From a virus (Duplodnaviria; Caudoviricetes), in the IMG/VR virus record IMGVR_UViG_3300031992_000007, positions 96,001 through 160,000 of that record: a stretch of DNA of 64,000 nucleotides. One strand, written 5' to 3'. A program made the translations under genes and the position numbers. Under the pieces are notes generated by a model. The model worked only from the letters and a program-made list of their open reading frames with translations. It was not told the origin of the DNA and did not search any database. Positions 972 through 58,411 of this stretch are shown here, piece by piece (the first letter of the stretch is position 1; each line of letters starts with the position of its first letter).

Positions 972-1791
972 AGGTGAGCATCCAGAACTTGGATATTGGA
1001 TAGCATATCACGAAGGTGGTTCTGATAGAGAGGGAACGTGTGTTTCAGCGTGGACTCGCAGTGGATATTATTCAGTAGACAGACTAGCATGTAGGCTCTC
1101 CTATCTGGAGGTGAGGGTGAACGCTATTGGCATGCTGGGTGGTATGGAGCAATGGCTGTAGACAGAGAAGGAAAGAAATTGAATGTGACTATCTACTGGG
1201 TAGTTAATCTTGATATACACAATAGGCTCTCCTCAGAGGTGAGAACAGAGAAGGACAGTCGATATGTCTACGAGCAGTCGCTGATCAAGAGAATAATTCC
1301 TCACACGATGTCTTAACGTTCTACTCAAATAGAATCATGAACTCGATGTATCCTGGATCTGTGTATCGTAAAAGGCTCTCCCCCTCCAGAGGTGTAACTG
1401 ATCAGTCTTACGACACAAGATTTATTGTTGATAACAGAACTGTTGGTGGAACTGTTCCTGGTTCGACATATTCAAGTGGTTCTAGTTTGAATCGAGTTTA
1501 TGGAATGACTAACAGGCTCTCCTAAGGAGGTGAAAGAACAGGCTACGTATGTCAGTGTTACATTGGACTTGCAGGATATTGTGGGACTGATACAGGCAAC
1601 ACTACAATGAATCCAGCACGACCGTTATACGATGCAGAATTTCCCAGGCTCTCCTAAAAGGTGGACAGTCTAATGGCGCACCTCTCTTTGAATATGCGTG
1701 GAGACACTGGTTCATGATGAAGAATGGGTTTCACGGAACGAACTTCTCACCTAACTGGGATAATGATGTCTCCATAAACACAAGGCTCTCC
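972..1791 (+). repeat. Cassette array A: 6 in-frame variable peptide cassettes bounded by AGGTG and AGGCTCTCC
   Basis: AGGCTCTCC at 1093, 1224, 1373, 1514, 1646, 1783. Cassettes (GGT..TCC) are 973-1101, 1110-1232, 1238-1381, 1391-1522, 1529-1654, 1660-1791; all are multiples of 3 and stop-free. Confidence 0.9.
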
Positions 1792-10305: not shown

Positions 10306-12246
10306 ATGTCAGAAGCAGAAGTTCCCCCGTACTCGAAAGCCATTCTCAATGCCAACCGAGGAGTGACTAACATAATCGAGGCGGATGTCATTCGAGATGA
10401 TCTGATCAAAGTGATCGACAAACTCTTCAATACTCTCAAGAAGCACTACGGACCTCTTAGTGAGTTCGCAGCTCTTGACAGTAGAGATCCTCTGTCCAAA
10501 ACCAAGTTCACTAAGGATGGTATCAACATCGTTCGTGCTATCGAGTTCACTTCTCCTCAGGAGGACTGGATCCGCAAGACGGTAGCCTTCATCGGTGAGC
10601 GAGTCGAAGCATCTGTTGGCGATGGTACGACATCAGCGATGATGTTCACCTGCGCTATGATGAAGCGCATGATGCAGTCCATTGATAAACTTCGCCCGAT
10701 TTCTTACATCGAGCTTCAGCAGAAGTTTATGAATCTGGTGTACGACATCGAGGACAACATCAAGTTGGTGACCTACGGACCAAAGGTTGACGGAGAGGTC
10801 GATAGTAATCGAGTCCACCAAATCGTCTACAACCAGGTGTATACCGCTTCACACGGTGATGTTGAGTTGGCCAAGGCTGTTGCTGAGCTGTATGACTCAA
10901 CACCTGAGGAACTGTGGGACAAGATGATCTACGAACGTCTGACCTACGAGTCGGACAAGAGATTCGATGTTGTCTACACTGGCGGTCAGTATCAGATGCC
11001 ATGTGAAGTCATGATGAACGGAATGTTGAACCAGGAGTTCTGCTCCAGGTACGATCACGAGCACTGCACGTTCGTGGTTATGAACAACCCGATCATGATG
11101 GACACGGATGCGTATCAGTACGTCATCGATACGATCGAGTCGGATGAAGTTAGCAAGGATAAGCCCCTTGTAATACTCTGTCACTCGAACATCGATACAG
11201 CCACTTATCAGGACCTAATAGCCAGGCTGAACGAGTATGTTACTCGCGATAAACCTGTTGTCATCTTCTACGTCAATACAACGATGGGTGATTGGAATCC
11301 TGAGGTGAACGACTTCCGTACACTTCAGCTTCTCTGTGGAATGGAGATTACCAAACTTCGTCGTACACAGAACAGGAATGAGTTGGTTATCGTCAAGGAT
11401 GTCCATGTGTCCTGGACGAACAAGACCCTTGTTCTTGATCACCTCTACGAAGTTCCTGAAGAGTGGAAAGACGAACCTCGTCGTCACATGGCTATCGACG
11501 GCAAGCACATGCAGTATACGGACTACCTGGCTGCAGTCAAGAAGTACGCCGAAGCATACGCCAAGCTCCCTGCCAACAAGAGCAACAAGGAGATGACGAC
11601 TCTCATGTACAGGACTTATGCCAAGCTGATGTATACCAAGCTCGGTTGCATCCGCATCGGTGGTTCTGTCCATGACAATGTGGCTCTCTTGGATATCGTG
11701 GATGACTGTGTAAGAGCTTCCTCTAGGGCACTCTGCAAAGGTATCACCTTCGGTAACAACAGGTCTCTGTACATCATCCTTAAGGAGTTCGAGGATATCG
11801 AGAAGTACGACCGCGTTCGTTCGTGGTTGATCTCGAACATGATCGCTGCTCTTGAGGATATGGCCGTTGCTCAGATGGAGTTGATCTTCCCTGGTGAGAA
11901 ATTCAGCAAACGCAGGAAACGTCAGTTCGTAGAGACCTGGTACACTCACGCGATCAACGTCATTGGTCTCTTTGACAAGTTGCACGATGATGATGCGGAT
12001 CAATTCGATCCTCTTGTGGATCTGAGTGAGACTAACTTGGTTAATAAGCTGGCAGACGCCCTGGTGTCTACCATGGACTTCCAGGAACTCCTCACCGATC
12101 CTCTTATTACCCAGCCTGCTGATACCGACATTTCTATGCTCAAGCGTTTTGGAGAAGTTGCTCTCAAATTTGCTCTCTCTGGGAGAATCATAGTGAGCAA
12201 TTCTGCCTACGTGAATGATAATGAAAGGAAGGCAGGTAAGAAATGA
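10306..12246 (+). CDS. groEL: Divergent GroEL/chaperonin-like protein
   Basis: HYGP, TKDGINIV, VGDGTTSA (ATP-binding), IRIGG and DDCVRA..AL..GI motifs in GroEL order. Confidence 0.8.
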   Translation: MSEAEVPPYSKAILNANRGVTNIIEADVIRDDLIKVIDKLFNTLKKHYGPLSEFAALDSRDPLSKTKFTKDGINIVRAIEFTSPQEDWIRKTVAFIGERVEASVGDGTTSAMMFTCAMMKRMMQSIDKLRPISYIELQQKFMNLVYDIEDNIKLVTYGPKVDGEVDSNRVHQIVYNQVYTASHGDVELAKAVAELYDSTPEELWDKMIYERLTYESDKRFDVVYTGGQYQMPCEVMMNGMLNQEFCSRYDHEHCTFVVMNNPIMMDTDAYQYVIDTIESDEVSKDKPLVILCHSNIDTATYQDLIARLNEYVTRDKPVVIFYVNTTMGDWNPEVNDFRTLQLLCGMEITKLRRTQNRNELVIVKDVHVSWTNKTLVLDHLYEVPEEWKDEPRRHMAIDGKHMQYTDYLAAVKKYAEAYAKLPANKSNKEMTTLMYRTYAKLMYTKLGCIRIGGSVHDNVALLDIVDDCVRASSRALCKGITFGNNRSLYIILKEFEDIEKYDRVRSWLISNMIAALEDMAVAQMELIFPGEKFSKRRKRQFVETWYTHAINVIGLFDKLHDDDADQFDPLVDLSETNLVNKLADALVSTMDFQELLTDPLITQPADTDISMLKRFGEVALKFALSGRIIVSNSAYVNDNERKAGKK

Positions 12247-35632: not shown

Positions 35633-38600
35633 TTACGCTTCTTTCCACATAGCAAGCATGTCGTTCTCAAGCTTCTCCAATACAGAATTACACAGACCTT
35701 GGAGGAACGGACTTGTAATAAGACGTGCAAGTATGCCACGTCCACTTGTACAAGCCTCTACTTTCTCTCCATCCTCAGTCAAGATGTAATCATCGTATTT
35801 GGTAGACACTGTGCTCTTAAGAGCAGAGTCGAAGAACAACTTGTCGCCAGGATTCATCCCCTTGGTCTGCTTGATGTAGAACCTAAGGATTACGGTCTCC
35901 TCGGTAAGATCGACTGTACCTACCTTAGAGGTAGCAGCCAACGGAGCAGACTTCCTGAACTGGTTCGCGTTGTCACAACCAGCAGCTCTTTCGGCACGAG
36001 CGTCTTTGTCTTTGATCACGTGACGAACAAGCTTCTGTAAAGACGGACTCATCTGGGAGATTGGGCATTTGTACAACGCCTCGATCTTCATGATCGTTCC
36101 AGAGTGTCCTGCCTTAGGAGCCTGTCTATTCAGTTCACTAAGTTTCTCAGTGAGAACCTGGTCGTCTCCAGTATCGAACGGAAGAGCTGACTGATCGAAC
36201 ACGATAAGAGGTTCAGTGTTAAGAACATCCGTACCTAAGTCAGCGAACGAGTGAACGTTCGTGTCCTTAGTTATCACTATCTCCTTAACATGGATTGGGT
36301 TGAACACCATCTTGTCTGCAAGGGGTTGAGTGATGATGGACGCGTCCTCAACTGTGCCACCATTGTCGAGAATAGCAACCTTGGCTAGAATACCAAGTTT
36401 CATCTCAACTTGCTTATCGTAAGGATTGGCCTGGAAGAACTGCCTATTGTAGATCAAGATATCTCCTGGCTTGAACTTATCTCCAGCCTTGAAGTTATTG
36501 ACCACAACCTCCTGGTCGACGAAGAAACCATTGGCAGAGTTGTTAGTGGCTTCCGAACCAAAAGGTAGACAGACCTTCTTACCATCCTTGTAACGAATGA
36601 TCATCGTCCTGCTCTTCTCATCCACAGACTGTACAGTACCTTCACTCTGCGCAGCATAAGCAAAGTTTGGGTTAGTACACTTGTGAGCAACAACTCCTTC
36701 ATAACCGGTCTTCAGACGAGACACTTCGGATTCGGCTATCGGCACATAGTGCGACATCTGAATGTTGATGAAGTTCGCGCGCTTTGAATCGTCGGAGGTT
36801 GCACCAGGGACAAGAAGGCTAGTAATAGACAAGACATTCTCAGGTTCGAGTTTGTCTATGTCTGCCTCAGTCACGGCCATACCTCTGGCATTCGTGAAGA
36901 TAGGGTTGAAAGGAAGAGTTGCATTGAGGCCAGTAGTTCCATTATCGACAGTTGCCTCACTGACGATACCAAGTTGGTCGTCTGTGAACTGACGATCTGG
37001 AATCATGAATGTGTCATTGCTACGACCACCGTCACCAGCATTGGAGAACTTGGAGTACATCTTGATGTCATGGATCGGGTTGATCACGCTGACATTCTCC
37101 ACCAACTGATGATGCATGATACGCTGAGCAACAGCATACTCACTTATTGAGAACTTGTTAGATGAACCAACAGAACGATTCTTGTAGCCAGCGAAAGCAC
37201 GAGCCAACTCGTTGTACACCATACCAGTTATCTGTTCAACTCCACGGAAACGGAAGTTAGAAGCAGAAGCCGGATGCTTGTGCTCGGTGGTTGTAAGCAT
37301 CGCTACAGCACGGATGAGAAGGTCCCTGATGTCAGTAGGCTCTCTCATCTCACGGAGAACATCCTTGGTTGTAGGATCGATGAAGAGGTTGAACACCCCA
37401 TCGATACCCTTGATCATGTTAGGAGAGATTCCCTTCTGACTGAGCATGTCGTAGTAGACATCCTTGTCATCCATATCCTCAATAGAGAAGTTGCCAAGAT
37501 CGTAGATACTTAACCCACCGAACAGAAGAGCGTTAACTCTCGGGTTACGACGGATGATGAGCTTCTTATCCGAGAACTGGATGACGATATCAGAAATCCT
37601 CTTCTCCACACGGGCATTCTTGTCGAAGATCTCGTAGTCGACATTGCAGTACTTGAGCATGTTCCGCAATCCGTACTTGTAGCACAGCATGTGCGCAACA
37701 GGGATCACGTAGCTCATAATAGTAACCTGAGCATACTCGACCATCGAGTTGAATTCCATCCCAGTGATGTACTCCACGAAGTCCATGAAGGCTCCGTAGA
37801 AAGGTTCCGTATCAGGATCCTTGATGGATCTAGAGCAGACCTGTCCAGTTACGGTGATGAAGAAGTGTTCGTCTCCACGAGAACCGAACCACACTCCACA
37901 TTCCTTCTCCATCTTGGAGATCTCTTTCTTGAGAGCATCAGGAATGACAACCTCTCTGTTCATGATGTCGAAGAACATGAACCCACCCTGGAAGTCTATC
38001 CTGGTGTATTTGGATCCAAGTTCTGTCAACTCGAACGGGAAAGCTTTGATGGGGTATTTGCAGGAACCATGAGAAAGAGTGTACTTGAACCCAGCTTCAC
38101 CGGCTTTCTTAAGGGCTTTGTCGAACCAGGTCTTAAAGTCATGAGCAGCATTCGTGTTCCTCGTAACCAACAACTTGTTGTAGTTGGAGTTGAGGGTTAC
38201 ACGATCATCCTTGACTTTACAAATAGGATTTGAGACTCTCTGTTTGTGGATCGTCTTGACCGAGCCGTTGTCCAAGAAGTTGCCGTTCTTGTCAACCTTA
38301 GGAAGACTGAGCTTGAAGGAATGGTTCTTGTGGTTGAGGTCTTCGTACTTAACCTTGTAGACAGTCCTTGAGTTAAGGTCGTCAACCAAGTCTTCCTGTT
38401 GGAAGTCCACCAGGAACATACCCTGCTTATTAAAGGAAGTGAAGATCGCAGCCAAGTCCTTGTTCATCAGCTTATCGATGTACTGAGCATCCAAGTCAGC
38501 TGTAGTAGAACCTGCGAACATGTGTTCGTTAGTTCCACTGATAATAGCTTCCTTAGGCTGAGAGTCAAGAACTTTCTTCTCCTGTTTCTTGAGTTCAGGA

Positions 38601-39967
38601 GGAGGTTCAAGATCGAACTCAGGAACTTCAGTAAGAACCTGTTGGAAGGATTTGCCACCGATAGTAAGCTTCTTGTAGGAGGTGCTTATCTTCCTAGCAT
38701 GCTCCTTCTGAGCAGTTGACAGAGGTTTGTCATCTGCTGTTATGTTGGCGCTCAGGATGGCATCGAAGTCATCCAGTTCCTTCATGTCAATATCCGAAGC
38801 TTCCTGTTTTTCTTTGAGAGTCATCGGAGCTACGAACTCAGGCTGGTTGGCTTTGTTACCACCTTCTTCGACATCGACTATTTCCTCAGAGACTGACTCC
38901 GGTTCGGCAGTCTGGATGAAGGTAGAAGGAGCAGCACTTCCAGTAAGCATGTTCACATGGTTGATGACACGGATAATGCCGGAACCATTATGCCCTGCTA
39001 TCTCCTTAAGATCTCTGAGGTTGTAGATGATGAAGTTCTCTCCACAAGTAAGGAAGATGTTGATGTTCTCCAGCATCCTAGGAGGAAGGAATTCAAAGAT
39101 CGACTTCTTGTACGGATTCTCTGTATCCTTGAGAGTCAACTCTTCCATGGCACAGATGTTATCCGACTCCACGAAAGTCCTCACGTTTGTAAGGAACTCT
39201 TCGGAAGTAAGATCGGGATCGTAGGTAGAAGGATCGATAGCGAATGCTTCGATAGCCTTCTTGTCCTCTTCCTCTTCGCCCTCCATCTGTCCTCGTTTGG
39301 GCAAGGACATCGGTTTGGCTAACAAACCATACAGGTGTGCTAGGAACAAGTACGAGGATATCTCAGGGTATTTGGTAGAGATACGATCGTACTTCTTGAA
39401 GATCCTAACGAAGTCACTCTTCTCGAACCTAAGTGCTTCCAGAGGGATGTGGATATAATGCATCCTGTCAGGAGCAGTCATGATCGTGTTGAGGACATAG
39501 GCAAAAAGAAAGTTGAGGAATCTCGGCTTCCTTCTTATTCCCATGACTCTAGCACGGAAAATCGAGTTGTAGTTGACGAGAGGAAGAGTGTTGGGCCGAA
39601 TGGGCATCGACTTGATGTCATTGAACGGAAGCACTCTGCCCTTCATATCCCTTCTGTAAGCATTAAGCTGAGAGATCAGCCCGGATGCTGTCAACCTTAT
39701 CCTGTTCCTTACAACAGGGACAGTTTCGGGAAGAGACTCCATCCCAGTCACATGATGAACAAAGATCTTGTAGTTGTTCATCGTGGTGATAGGGTTGTCG
39801 AACGCAGGAGCGAAGTTGACCACACCCTGGTTCATTGGGAAGTTATCCAGCACATGAGCTATAGCACCAACAGGGAGTTCGGATAGTTCATTGATCTTGT
39901 GAAGTTCCTTGAACTGACCTTGACGGAAAGTCTGGAACCTGCGCCGGAATTGGGCGAATTTGATCAT
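35633..39967 (-). CDS. Virion RNA polymerase beta-like subunit (phiKZ gp178-like)
   Basis: 1444 aa; QRVSNPICK..LNSNYNK, GDGGRS, VSEATVDNG..G, DDSKRANFINIQMSH, EDAS, GDKL..LKS motifs. Confidence 0.9.
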   Translation of the reverse strand: MIKFAQFRRRFQTFRQGQFKELHKINELSELPVGAIAHVLDNFPMNQGVVNFAPAFDNPITTMNNYKIFVHHVTGMESLPETVPVVRNRIRLTASGLISQLNAYRRDMKGRVLPFNDIKSMPIRPNTLPLVNYNSIFRARVMGIRRKPRFLNFLFAYVLNTIMTAPDRMHYIHIPLEALRFEKSDFVRIFKKYDRISTKYPEISSYLFLAHLYGLLAKPMSLPKRGQMEGEEEEDKKAIEAFAIDPSTYDPDLTSEEFLTNVRTFVESDNICAMEELTLKDTENPYKKSIFEFLPPRMLENINIFLTCGENFIIYNLRDLKEIAGHNGSGIIRVINHVNMLTGSAAPSTFIQTAEPESVSEEIVDVEEGGNKANQPEFVAPMTLKEKQEASDIDMKELDDFDAILSANITADDKPLSTAQKEHARKISTSYKKLTIGGKSFQQVLTEVPEFDLEPPPELKKQEKKVLDSQPKEAIISGTNEHMFAGSTTADLDAQYIDKLMNKDLAAIFTSFNKQGMFLVDFQQEDLVDDLNSRTVYKVKYEDLNHKNHSFKLSLPKVDKNGNFLDNGSVKTIHKQRVSNPICKVKDDRVTLNSNYNKLLVTRNTNAAHDFKTWFDKALKKAGEAGFKYTLSHGSCKYPIKAFPFELTELGSKYTRIDFQGGFMFFDIMNREVVIPDALKKEISKMEKECGVWFGSRGDEHFFITVTGQVCSRSIKDPDTEPFYGAFMDFVEYITGMEFNSMVEYAQVTIMSYVIPVAHMLCYKYGLRNMLKYCNVDYEIFDKNARVEKRISDIVIQFSDKKLIIRRNPRVNALLFGGLSIYDLGNFSIEDMDDKDVYYDMLSQKGISPNMIKGIDGVFNLFIDPTTKDVLREMREPTDIRDLLIRAVAMLTTTEHKHPASASNFRFRGVEQITGMVYNELARAFAGYKNRSVGSSNKFSISEYAVAQRIMHHQLVENVSVINPIHDIKMYSKFSNAGDGGRSNDTFMIPDRQFTDDQLGIVSEATVDNGTTGLNATLPFNPIFTNARGMAVTEADIDKLEPENVLSITSLLVPGATSDDSKRANFINIQMSHYVPIAESEVSRLKTGYEGVVAHKCTNPNFAYAAQSEGTVQSVDEKSRTMIIRYKDGKKVCLPFGSEATNNSANGFFVDQEVVVNNFKAGDKFKPGDILIYNRQFFQANPYDKQVEMKLGILAKVAILDNGGTVEDASIITQPLADKMVFNPIHVKEIVITKDTNVHSFADLGTDVLNTEPLIVFDQSALPFDTGDDQVLTEKLSELNRQAPKAGHSGTIMKIEALYKCPISQMSPSLQKLVRHVIKDKDARAERAAGCDNANQFRKSAPLAATSKVGTVDLTEETVILRFYIKQTKGMNPGDKLFFDSALKSTVSTKYDDYILTEDGEKVEACTSGRGILARLITSPFLQGLCNSVLEKLENDMLAMWKEA

Positions 39968-40016: not shown

Positions 40017-40719
40017 AGGTGAAGATGGGACATCTATCCATGTTTCTAGAGTCGTTCAAACGTGGGGAGTGAGTAATGTTGGAGATATAAACATTTCCAA
40101 CTCCGTACACACTTATCCTCACTTATCAGAAGCCAGGCTCTCCGGAGGTGATGTCACTATTTACAACCAATATGGGTTAGCACAACCAAGTAACCTTATC
40201 GTTATGGATTATTCCGTAAACAATGGATGTCTTCCTAATAATCACATGGGTTTTGGATTGATTTTTATAGGAAAACCAGGAAGGCTCTCCCAGATAGGTG
40301 AGACGACAACTCCAGAATGGTTGAAGAACAAGATGGGAATGTGTAGTGCCGAAAGTCAGGGTTCGACAAGAACGTACGATCAATCTCCTAACACAGTTGT
40401 AACCAGACAGGGTGGCTTTATTCCAAGGCTCTCCAGGTGGAAATACCGAAAATAAAGACGTACATAGTAGACAGGAAACATTGGTCATAATGTCTAATGG
40501 AAGTGCGCATTACCACGATTCAAGATTGTGGCCAGCAGCTAATGATCCAGAAAGAGTAAGGCTCTCCGCTCCGCCGGAGGTGTTTCGTACGCACAGACAC
40601 ATTATTTCTTTCCGCACTGCGTAGCTCCAATAATCGACGACGGTGTGATGTGGCAGAACGGGTGGCAGGGTGCAGATTTGATGCATTATAGCGGAATATT
40701 TAAGCAAATAAGGCTCTCC
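40017..40719 (+). repeat. Cassette array B: 5 in-frame variable peptide cassettes bounded by AGGTG and AGGCTCTCC
   Basis: AGGCTCTCC at 40135, 40282, 40426, 40559, 40711. Cassettes are 40018-40143, 40147-40290, 40297-40434, 40436-40567, 40579-40719; all are multiples of 3 and stop-free. Confidence 0.9.
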
Positions 40720-40797: not shown

Positions 40798-41181
40798 ATG
40801 AAAGCCAAGACAAAAACAACGAAGAAGACTGCAGCCTCCAAGGCGAAGAAGCCTGTGAAGAAGGTTGCTAAGAAATCCGCCAAGTCGGTCAAGCCGGACA
40901 AGAAGAAAGTCAGCAAGATCAACAAGAAGGACAACGAAATCGGTTCCAAGATCGTTGATCTTCTGAAGAACACTCTTGCTCCAACTTCGACACTCAAGGC
41001 CGCTCCGTCTGCTCCGGCAACTCAGAGCAAGTCGCCGGTTGCAACGATCGGAACGTGCACCCAGGCCCAGGTTAAGTCAGTGACTCGCTTCTCTGCAACT
41101 CCTGTTGCTAAGACAAGGTTCGTTGCAGCTGGCGTGTCGCCCAAGACTAACTTGCCTGTCACTCTTGTTGCCAGCAAGTAA
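40798..41181 (+). CDS. Lys/Ala-rich histone-H1-like basic protein
   Basis: MKAKTKTTKKTAASKAKKPVKKVAKKSAK N-terminus; AAGGAG RBS. Confidence 0.7.
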   Translation: MKAKTKTTKKTAASKAKKPVKKVAKKSAKSVKPDKKKVSKINKKDNEIGSKIVDLLKNTLAPTSTLKAAPSAPATQSKSPVATIGTCTQAQVKSVTRFSATPVAKTRFVAAGVSPKTNLPVTLVASK

Positions 41182-47459: not shown

Positions 47460-47535
47460 TCCAACTTAGCTCAGTTGGTAGAGCGCCGCACTGTTAATGC
47501 GGTGGTCCCAGGTTCGAGTCCTGGAGTTGGAGCCA
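47460..47535 (+). tRNA. trnN: tRNA-Asn (GTT)
   Basis: 76-nt cloverleaf: TCCAACT/AGTTGGA acceptor, anticodon arm CCGCA-CTGTTAA-TGCGG, T arm CCAGG-TTCGAGT-CCTGG, encoded CCA. Confidence 0.97.
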
Positions 47536-56593: not shown

Positions 56594-58411
56594 TTAGTTA
56601 TTTGGTACACGATGATAGGGTGTAAGAGCCATGATAGTACGGACGATGGACGAGTTGCCCATAACGTAACCACGATAGATCGGGGAGAACGTCGTGTTAC
56701 GAGCAACAAGCGCCGCCGCAGCAATCTGTCTCTTCAACTGTCCAAGACGGAAGTGTCGTTCCTTAAGACCGATAGCAGCAAGCGTTGCAAGGTATTCGTG
56801 AAGCTTGGTGTTATTGGAGAATGCCTGAGCAAATACTCCAGTACCACCCATGCTCAAGAACAGCATCGGACTAAGATCGTCGATCGAGATACTCACATCT
56901 GCAACAGTAGGGAGTTTACTAACTGCCCAACCATAATCACCAGAGCCACGGGTAATGGACAACGAGCTCACTATACCAGCAGGGATGGCGAACATACCCT
57001 TGCTGAACACTCTCACGATGAACGGAGAAGTGTAAGTGGAATCACCAACAGCTCTGGGTAGAGACATGGCAAGAAGCATCGCTATTGGAATCATGATAGA
57101 CTGATAGATCGACACAGGGTCGCCACCTGTCTTGGAACGAAGTTTCATGCTAAGATTGATGGACCTACTCATACCACCAGAACCACCCCACTGTTTAGGA
57201 AGGTCGAAGTAACCATTACCAGCAGCAAGATAGGTGATAGCAGACTCAAGTCCTCCACCGCTAGTGAAGTTCTTGATGGCTTTCTTAACACCAGAGATCT
57301 GTCTACCCCACTTCATCATCTTGGCAGTTATACCTTCGCCGTTAGCTTCGCCTGAAGCAGCATCGCGTTTAGCCTGGACTTCAGAGTTTAGCTTACCAGC
57401 AAGTGAGGAGTCCTGAGTGGAGTTACTGAAGGTTTCTCCAGACTCAGTCTTGTCAACTCTCCATCCGACGAAGTTGGCACCTTCAAGTGCACCTGTCGTG
57501 AGACCAGACCAGAACTTACCAAGCATGCCGACTTTCTCATTCGGATTGTCGACATAGTTGTTGACCTTCTGTAGCTGGGAGTCCGTATCGATAGGCTGAT
57601 TGGAACTTGTACCCAGACGAAGTGCACGCTTAGACATGATCCTGAAAATATCAGGGCCGTTCTTGATGATGTCAGGAACACTCTGACCACCACTACTTCC
57701 ACTACCAGAAGATCCGATACCCATATTGACAGCCAGGTGACACAGAATCGTGTTCACATACCTGTAATAGAGAGGCATGGTTTCACGGAAAGCGAAGTAC
57801 TCTGTAACGGGATAAGTCTTGATGTTGTTAACAACCTTGTAAGCCCAAATAGCAGGAAGCCAAGGAAGTTCGATAGCAAGTTTAAGACCACCTTTGATAA
57901 GGTCGCCCAACTTACTCCATACCGAGATCTTGCCCTCTTCATTGAGCTCAGCAAGTTCCTTCTTGGTTGCATTCTTGAGCCATGTAGTCAGGTTGCGGTA
58001 TTTTGGAATACCCATCGTGAAATATACAACTTGCTGGCGAGAGTCGTACATCTCACTGTATACACGCCCCATACCGAACATCTGTCCATTGTTGGTTGAG
58101 AATAGAGTGTGAATGAGATCGTCATTCTCGTTGAATGCAGCGAGAGGATTCATCACATCATTTCCACCAACACTAGCATCTGAGACGGAAGGTGCCTTGT
58201 AAGAGTAGGCCATGCTAGCAGGGTCGTTGATGTAGGTACCATATTCACCTTTATCCTCTTTGATCAAACTAGCGCCTTTACCATCTGCTATCTTGTTGAG
58301 CTGAGCAGTAAGAGCTTTCTCGTAGTTGGCATAATCACTGCCAACAACAATGCCTAGTGGATTGTGATTCCATGACGCATTGTCCTGAACTGCTGCAGAA
58401 TTGTTTGCCAT
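56594..58411 (-). CDS. Putative virion structural protein (phiKZ gp182-like)
   Basis: GMGRVYSE.YD, YTSPF, GIVSSLSITRG...GW...P...DVS.SI.DLS motifs; lies near the tape-measure-like gene. Confidence 0.6.
   Translation of the reverse strand: MANNSAAVQDNASWNHNPLGIVVGSDYANYEKALTAQLNKIADGKGASLIKEDKGEYGTYINDPASMAYSYKAPSVSDASVGGNDVMNPLAAFNENDDLIHTLFSTNNGQMFGMGRVYSEMYDSRQQVVYFTMGIPKYRNLTTWLKNATKKELAELNEEGKISVWSKLGDLIKGGLKLAIELPWLPAIWAYKVVNNIKTYPVTEYFAFRETMPLYYRYVNTILCHLAVNMGIGSSGSGSSGGQSVPDIIKNGPDIFRIMSKRALRLGTSSNQPIDTDSQLQKVNNYVDNPNEKVGMLGKFWSGLTTGALEGANFVGWRVDKTESGETFSNSTQDSSLAGKLNSEVQAKRDAASGEANGEGITAKMMKWGRQISGVKKAIKNFTSGGGLESAITYLAAGNGYFDLPKQWGGSGGMSRSINLSMKLRSKTGGDPVSIYQSIMIPIAMLLAMSLPRAVGDSTYTSPFIVRVFSKGMFAIPAGIVSSLSITRGSGDYGWAVSKLPTVADVSISIDDLSPMLFLSMGGTGVFAQAFSNNTKLHEYLATLAAIGLKERHFRLGQLKRQIAAAALVARNTTFSPIYRGYVMGNSSIVRTIMALTPYHRVPNN

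Follow-up and report, generated by a model that had tools for sequence, protein, structure and literature searches.

Five short units, each stop-free in a single frame and each closed by the same nucleotides, lie in tandem beside the gene for a phage multisubunit RNA polymerase beta subunit, raising the question of what such a run of units is for. The array they form, hereafter referred to as array B, occupies positions 40018-40719 (plus strand) of a 64,000-nt window corresponding to bases 96001-160000 of a 265,480-bp IMG/VR virus record rated complete by CheckV; in genome coordinates the array spans 136018-136719. The polymerase gene (35633..39967, minus strand; phrog_3148, E 3.9e-236) starts 51 nt to the left of the array and, judging from this gene, the virus is a phiKZ-like jumbo phage. 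To the right, a 78-nt gap containing a TATAAAT motif separates the array from a plus-strand gene with its own Shine-Dalgarno sequence (40798..41181), which encodes a 127-aa lysine-rich protein. A family search that included PHROGs returned no match for this protein, the N-terminal half of which is very rich in lysine and alanine and histone-H1-like.

The units of array B measure 126 nt (B1, 40018..40143, 42 codons), 144 nt (B2, 40147..40290), 138 nt (B3, 40297..40434), 132 nt (B4, 40436..40567) and 141 nt (B5, 40579..40719, the last unit of the array), all on the plus strand. B1 directly follows a TAA, and the four linkers, GGA, CAGATA, a frame-shifting single A and GCTCCGCCGGA (3, 6, 1 and 11 nt, respectively), precede B2 to B5. 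Each unit starts with GGT, preceded by A and followed by G, and ends in AGGCTCTCC / GGCTCTCC, with copies of the 8-nt 3' anchor GGCTCTCC starting at 40136, 40283, 40427, 40560 and 40712 (the last spanning 40712..40719). The GGT frame (GGT...CTC TCC) is free of stops in all five units, and the other two sense frames contain 2-6 stops each (2-3 in B1). Within the window, AGGCTCTCC occurs 11 times, always on the plus strand, against 0.71 copies expected, a number reached in none of 100 shuffles; five copies close the units of array B and six close those of array A (973..1791, genome 96973-97791, plus strand), a set of six donors of 129, 123, 144, 132, 126 and 132 nt following the same grammar. 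A sequence-only reading of this stretch had described the five in-frame, stop-free units of array B, claimed identical anchors at the two loci and stated that they have no interior in common. On recheck, its unit lengths, linkers, translations and leading TAA were all correct, the anchors were the same, and no B unit resembled any A unit.

Several other readings of the units were discarded. Rfam and tRNA scans of the window, run with a known RNA family in mind for the units of arrays A and B, gave only a tRNA-Asn (GTT) at 47460-47535, the sole tRNA of the genome. Interpretation of the junctions as splice sites (AG|GTGAG after a pyrimidine run) was rejected because the exons would be of zero length, and ribosomal bypassing over the linkers was rejected because matched take-off and landing codons are absent.

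The complete genome contains 53 copies of GGCTCTCC, every one of them at the end of a unit and none elsewhere: 52 close donor units and one lies inside a gene. The 52 donors sit in about 11 intergenic arrays distributed over the 265-kb genome, as anticipated by the prediction of further arrays outside the window. Besides arrays A and B, these include arrays at genome 1424-2268, 10854-11106 (two units, minus strand), 11111-11913 (six units, plus strand), 56724-57695 and 234729-235269 (both between convergent terminators), 243018-243857, 246106-247384 and 262969-263112. A genome-wide tally of phase, which the sequence-only reading had proposed, found all 53 anchor-bounded units (108-153 nt) to be multiples of 3 and open in the GGT frame (frame 0) only, the chance of shared phase alone being (1/3)^53; the random phase and frequent stops that would have refuted that reading did not occur. 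Linkers between units take any length from 1 to about 19 nt. The unit interiors are enriched in Gly, Asn, Trp and Tyr (Trp 3.6% vs 1.2% in the long ORFs of the phage) and depleted in Leu, Lys and Glu. An IMG/VR pattern scan for two successive anchors returned 11 single, chance-level matches and no relatives, and megablast against a phage collection gave no match.

The one copy of GGCTCTCC inside a gene belongs to a 1412-aa fibre-like ORF outside the window (genome 224574-228812, minus strand), where the cassette (genome 224595-224744, minus strand) forms the penultimate segment of the protein, giving the layout ...WWLRSAG-cassette-LSPLITIG-stop. The 5' junction of this acceptor reads ...TGGCTCCGCTCCGCCGGA|GGT, the A|GGT(G) element taking the form GCCGGAGGT. 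The WWLRS...PLITIG frame is present in one gene only in the whole genome, and the donors lie 6 to >200 kb from it, array B at a distance of about 88 kb. This arrangement supports the earlier proposal of a dispersed, trans-acting system, for which the acting enzyme has not been shown.

The identity of the acceptor as a receptor-binding fibre with a DUF6273/C-type-lectin-like tip is inferred from context and a language-model lead, because the 1412-aa protein has no Pfam or PHROG match and the AF2 model of its C-terminal 333 residues (6-sequence alignment) was unusable (pLDDT 34). A deeper alignment was not obtainable, since an exhaustive search of 1.84 billion representatives identified just 10 relatives of the protein, a small clade; a search for related loci with the fibre C-terminus found none. 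ESM-Atlas features of the C-terminal 283 residues pointed to DUF6273 in 28 of 30 matches (score 0.93), and among the neighbours of the acceptor are one protein assigned to a tail-fibre PHROG and others carrying DUF6273, one of the latter having a matching WWLRS...terminal-strand layout. DUF6273 is C-type-lectin-like and a target of diversity-generating retroelements (DGRs), with a C-terminal variable region (PMC10743442; bioRxiv 10.1101/2024.10.15.618418). Several large neighbours of the acceptor (genome 217831-234662) also have an N-terminal motif, ...LPTxSxxNFG..., in common, which suggests a cluster of fibre paralogues on one adaptor, with the cassette site in one of them alone.

Three donor-acceptor pairs could be traced, none of them involving array B. 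In the genome analyzed here (G000), the acceptor cassette together with 10 upstream nt is identical over 160/160 positions to the last unit of the array at 243018-243857, which lies in inverted orientation, and the identity stops exactly at the anchors; the other 51 donors are unrelated to this cassette. The expressed cassette of relative L019 copies a silent single-unit array located 9.3 kb upstream and still present in L019, the common tract starting at CCGGAGGT, ending at GGCTCTCC and differing by three substitutions (A>G, T>C and G>A). In P0003, the expressed cassette is 48/48 identical to the last silent unit of an array in the sister strain L020. As far as comparison of assembled genomes can establish it, transfer is thus a DNA-level copy bounded by the anchors, with the donor retained; there is no read-level evidence of switching within one population. 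Since the donor is kept, the process is copying and not inversion, and the earlier argument against a local inversion shufflon stands, no tyrosine or serine recombinase having been found either. In each of the three pairs the donor-side unit stands last, or alone, in its array, which is suggestive of a preference for last-in-array donors, only acceptor-near arrays of relatives having been inspected.

The relatives further show the cassette to be the part of the fibre that varies. All homologues keep WWLRSAGG and [R/W/G]LSPLITIG, and the sequence between these flanks is unrelated. Within 90%-identity clusters, different cassettes are found on fibres whose bodies are 98.5-100% identical in their last 400 residues, with at least 7 different cassettes among the 10 full-length members of one cluster. 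Genomes L016 and L019 are 99.6% identical over 24.7 kb, and the sole piece that cannot be aligned is the 148-nt cassette. Such comparisons show that cassettes turn over rapidly among strains that are otherwise nearly identical. Two or three cassettes with linkers stand in tandem at the expression site in L018 (15143-15616), P0007 and P0018, and truncated or out-of-frame products are found there in P0015 and P0016, which is what occasional mis-resolved transfers would leave. One case among the three tandem sites has a linker stop that truncates the fibre ahead of LSPLITIG.

Sequence belonging to the expression site is also found in the arrays. The 11-nt linker ahead of B5 (40568..40578, plus strand) equals the 11 nt ahead of the cassette in the acceptor gene; nothing else ties array B directly to the acceptor. 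The acceptor's GCCGGA precedes several other array units. Going by these footprints, flank information has flowed from the expression site into the arrays as well, which could happen via co-conversion or archiving of expressed cassettes.

The two boundaries differ in stringency. The 3' anchor (8-9 nt) is strict and the 5' anchor (4-9 nt) looser: among donors, A at -1 and GGT are invariant, apart from one plus-strand unit at genome 11100-11115 with T in place of the A, while G is present at -2 in 64-77% and at +4 in 68-95%. About half of the junctions contain GGAGGT(G). Between phages, the codons for WWLRS and PLITIG vary synonymously, whereas GCMGGAGGT (GCC/GCA-GGA-GGT) and GGCTCTCC(CCGCT) remain unchanged, and the anchor nucleotides are conserved across fibres that are just 44-63% identical, which shows the anchors to be constrained at the nucleotide level. 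Outside the arrays of G000, GCTCTCC occurs only 3 times on both strands, compared with 18.6 (Markov) or 27 (composition) occurrences expected, a depletion with a probability of about 1e-5 by our own Poisson estimate; GGCTCTC is not depleted. The corresponding count in five smaller relative loci (4 vs 5.7-11 expected) is not significant. We read the depletion in G000 as suggesting that this DNA word either is the target of some factor or poses a hazard through recombination.

Silent units also bear traces of selection on the protein they would encode. Five orthologous or paralogous silent pairs gave dN/dS values of 0.18-0.53 at dS 0.6-1.5. The constraint thus acts on the protein; it is weaker than we would expect of constitutively expressed genes and would fit intermittent expression.

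The minus strand carries three quarters of the coding length, and plus-strand arrays are antisense to their neighbours. Most arrays fill a gap flanked on one side by the terminator of a minus-strand gene and on the other by the start of the following minus-strand gene; read on the plus strand, this terminator is an A-run and then a GC hairpin, right after the last anchor. Array B is the exception, with no hairpin after it and a plus-strand gene following. No recognisable promoter was found in any array, and we infer that the arrays are stored in transcriptionally quiet DNA. Beside the RNA polymerase gene of relative L026 (4421-6001; beta subunit 65% identical) there is no syntenic array, nor any GGCTCTCC unit in 11.4 kb; array positions are therefore lineage-specific, and the system itself perhaps is too.

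From the common grammar, the copy found in the acceptor, the cassette swaps of relatives and the retention of donors, we conclude that array B is a silent donor array of a duplicative, anchor-bounded cassette-replacement system, in which a library of 52 donors is copied one at a time into a single fibre-tip expression site. We assign a probability of about 0.72 to this reading as a whole; no array B unit has been shown to be used. The library of 52 donors in about 11 arrays would serve the last ~45 codons of the 1412-aa gene, one donor being copied into the expression site per event and kept, with the copied tract bounded at the 3' end by the invariant GGCTCTCC and at the 5' end by A|GGT(G). 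Each copy would replace the probable ligand-binding loops of the DUF6273/C-type-lectin-like tip, and so would probably change receptor specificity.

Two explanations do without any such system. If tips were merely swapped between co-infecting phages by ordinary recombination, with the arrays as decaying debris, relatives would be expected to differ mainly at the tip, as they do, and an array could well be missing beside the 65% identical RNA polymerase gene. Debris would hardly remain stop-free and in phase in 52 of 52 units or stay under purifying selection while silent, and unprogrammed exchange does not account for anchor nucleotides conserved across such divergent fibres or for expressed cassettes found silent in the same or a sister genome; we regard it as scarcely tenable. 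Still less credible is the translation of units in place, as small peptides or a RiPP-like precursor, through a Shine-Dalgarno-like GGAGGTG. The frequency of GGAGGT(G) at the junctions would fit this idea, as would a 128-aa ORF formed by B1-B3, which arises by chance. Yet an in-frame ATG lies within the first 8 codons of only 6 of 51 donors, a stop codon stands right after the last codon in only 8 of 51, the GTG within AGGTG is out of frame, and the same units occur fused in frame within the fibre gene. Codon usage of the units is unrelated to that of the phage genes (RSCU r = -0.04), with A at third positions at a frequency of 0.32 vs 0.15. The scarcity of in-frame ATGs and the arbitrary linker lengths thus mark the array units as untranslated where they are stored.

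How a cassette would be moved is less certain, and searches for enzymes provided few leads. A six-frame PF00078 search of the complete 265-kb record returned no reverse transcriptase candidate, and no ORF has the motif arrangement of such an enzyme. Neither PF00589 nor PF00239 (tyrosine and serine recombinases) matched in the genome, control genomes being matched, and RecA (PF00154) and GIY-YIG gave no match there; a single weak HNH match lies at genome 177290-177379. In G000 and in each of the five relatives examined, the acceptor is followed, one to three genes further downstream, by a gene for a protein of 322-347 aa. The first 135 residues of this protein match phrog_3206 'Avd protein of DGR' (six orthologues, E 3e-9 to 1e-4). 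In the AF2 model of this Avd-family protein these residues form a confident four-helix bundle (pLDDT 88), with best Foldseek matches to 2RLD, 2GSC and Avd chains of the DGR ribonucleoprotein 8UB7 (TM 0.65-0.71 by query) at weak E-values (best 1.9e-3). Pfam PF05635, NCBIfam and PDB sequence (profile) searches missed the protein, and the match is a remote one.

The most likely route, for which we infer somewhat better than even odds, is templated repair via DNA, induced by a nick or break and primed at the anchor, running from the strict 3' anchor to the looser 5' one. Once a nick or break at the acceptor's GCTCTCC anchor had freed a 3' end, that end could anneal to the matching 8-9 nt that close any donor and prime a copy of the donor, with synthesis then switching back to the acceptor through the (GGA)GGT(G) microhomology; the donor would remain intact. 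Recognition of GCTCTCC by a sequence-specific factor and participation of the neighbouring Avd-family protein are both inferred. A DNA intermediate is favoured by the transcriptionally quiet placement of the arrays. Against this route, anchors of 4-9 nt are very short, and no nuclease, recombinase or RecA-family protein was identified beyond the weak HNH match; recombinase-driven gene conversion normally needs flanking homology longer than these anchors.

The adjacent Avd-family gene points instead to an RNA/cDNA route, in which the arrays would be transcribed and a polymerase, aided by the Avd-family protein, would copy a unit faithfully into cDNA primed at GGCTCTCC, the cDNA then replacing the acceptor cassette. 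This would make the system a non-mutagenic, multi-template descendant of a DGR with an unrecognised polymerase. The Avd-family neighbour in all six genomes, with its PHROG match and four-helix model, the position of a 108-153-nt cassette at the C-terminal end of a probable C-lectin-like domain, as in DGR variable regions, and the strict 3' and loose 5' boundaries all agree with it. We nevertheless hold this route to be unlikely, given the absence of reverse transcriptase from both the six-frame search and the motif scans, the placement of two arrays between convergent terminators and the lack of a recognisable promoter in any array. Avd-like four-helix bundles are also known outside DGRs, and the evidence for this one is limited by the weak Foldseek scores and the missed database searches. 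Adenine-specific mutagenesis was rejected, adenines being copied faithfully: there are 0 changes in the 160 nt of the G000 pair, and one of the three L019 changes falls at a donor A. Much further from what we observe is an integron- or shufflon-like scheme, very improbable in our estimation, whereby a site-specific recombinase, cutting at the CTCC core of GGCTCTCC, releases cassettes as circles, which it then inserts into the acceptor or into other arrays. Units with acceptor-flank footprints (GCCGGA, GCTCCGCCGGA) do resemble insertions at that core, some expression sites hold tandem cassettes (two or three) with linkers, and the anchor is invariant and avoided elsewhere in the genome. This scheme, however, would require a tyrosine or serine recombinase, of which none was found, and donors are retained; moreover, linkers are of arbitrary length (1 to about 19 nt) and phase is kept from GGT only, so that the functional 5' junction lies at GGT and not at the upstream CTCC.

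Returning to anchor-bounded, donor-retaining copying, we tentatively entertain the possibility that the system is a DGR descendant devoid of reverse transcriptase, in which the Avd-family protein and a GCTCTCC-recognising factor would direct faithful copying from 52 templates into the lectin-like tip. The arrangement looks like a DGR target-plus-Avd module fed by a cassette library instead of one mutagenised template. Should this conjecture hold, it would represent a new molecular mechanism of programmed gene replacement and the first silent-cassette variation system known in a virus.

Silent donor libraries are a feature of antigenic variation in bacteria. For tprK of Treponema pallidum, two reports describe 53 silent donor cassettes and non-reciprocal, segmental gene conversion into one expression site (PMC10063172, PMC8480903). 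The tprK system resembles that of the phage in that one expression site draws on some 50 donors kept elsewhere without promoter or start, and in that short, discrete segments of a surface protein are overwritten by copying that retains the donor; unlike tprK, which has seven variable regions, the phage would replace one segment whole. The tprK donors are clustered at one chromosomal locus, whereas those of the phage are spread over about 11 arrays in a virus, have two fixed nucleotide anchors and come with an adjacent Avd-family gene. In Neisseria pilE/pilS and Borrelia vlsE, likewise, cassettes from silent arrays are transferred duplicatively and are bordered by short direct repeats (17 bp in vls), features that the phage has as well. 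Their cassettes, however, have a common conserved framework sequence that provides homology, in contrast to the unrelated interiors of the phage units, which have only 4-9 nt in common at each end and belong to a lytic-type jumbo phage. Of the hallmarks of silent-cassette gene conversion, the phage shows one acceptor with 52 donors lacking start and promoter, retention of the donor (G000, L019) and variation among near-identical strains; switching within one lineage during growth, dependent on recombination functions, would be expected by analogy only.

Two programmed ways of varying phage receptor-binding tips are known: invertases pick among a few alternatives, and a DGR mutagenises a single template. 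Invertase switches and shufflons (Mu Gin, P1 Cin, R64 Rci) rely on a recombinase, inverted repeats and reciprocal inversion of adjacent segments to select among 2 to about 12 alternatives, and Rin of a Bifidobacterium prophage is reportedly another phage switch of this tail-fibre/shufflon kind. Like them, the phage stores alternative C-terminal fibre tips silently in its genome; unlike them, it has no recombinase that we could find, its donors are dispersed and kept as duplicates, and the alternatives number 52. With DGRs (Bordetella phage BPP-1 Mtd; DUF6273 targets in gut phages, PMC10743442) the system shares an Avd-family gene beside the target, a template of 100-150 nt and one-way, donor-keeping transfer; its target, the C-terminal ~45 codons of a probable C-lectin-like receptor-binding domain, would be a further resemblance if that assignment is right. 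It differs from them in the absence of a detected reverse transcriptase and of adenine mutagenesis, and in having 52 unrelated templates and not one resembling the variable region. Full-text literature searches on phage silent cassettes, tail-fibre gene conversion, hypervariable cassettes of jumbo phages and the anchor word returned no account of a system of this kind. By our comparison with tprK, pilE/pilS and vlsE, what appears to be new is that the host is a virus, that the fixed anchors are so short, that donors are scattered over about 11 arrays and that an Avd-family gene lies next to the acceptor. If confirmed, the system would provide phages with a third strategy, in which about 50 ready-made, selected tips are copied on demand according to the logic of bacterial and parasite antigenic variation, and it would account for a giant-phage lineage changing specificity faster than its genome diverges. 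It would also imply an enzyme system able to replace about 130 bp precisely with 4-9-nt anchors, of value as a tool, and would show how a DGR (target plus Avd) might have evolved into a cassette library.

The arrays themselves are subject to change. L017 and L021, which are 95% identical, have six units in common and differ at one internal and at terminal positions. At genome 11100-11115, the two-unit minus-strand and six-unit plus-strand arrays stand head to head with their GGT starts 4 nt apart (...CACC TCAT GGTG...), an arrangement that looks like a past inversion with its breakpoint at the 5' anchor. One silent donor (598-756 in L016, L019, L024 and L025) differs at 5/159 positions among four strains that are otherwise 99.6-99.7% identical, the pairwise divergence being 0.6-3.1% inside the unit and 0.3-0.4% outside; first or second codon positions account for four of the five variable sites, and the changes show no specificity for adenine. 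Finally, metagenome contigs of relatives (the ends of L024 and L025; P0002, P0039) frequently stop where an array is located or no more than about 50 nt from the acceptor cassette, as expected if duplicates of 110-160 nt or population heterogeneity break assemblies.
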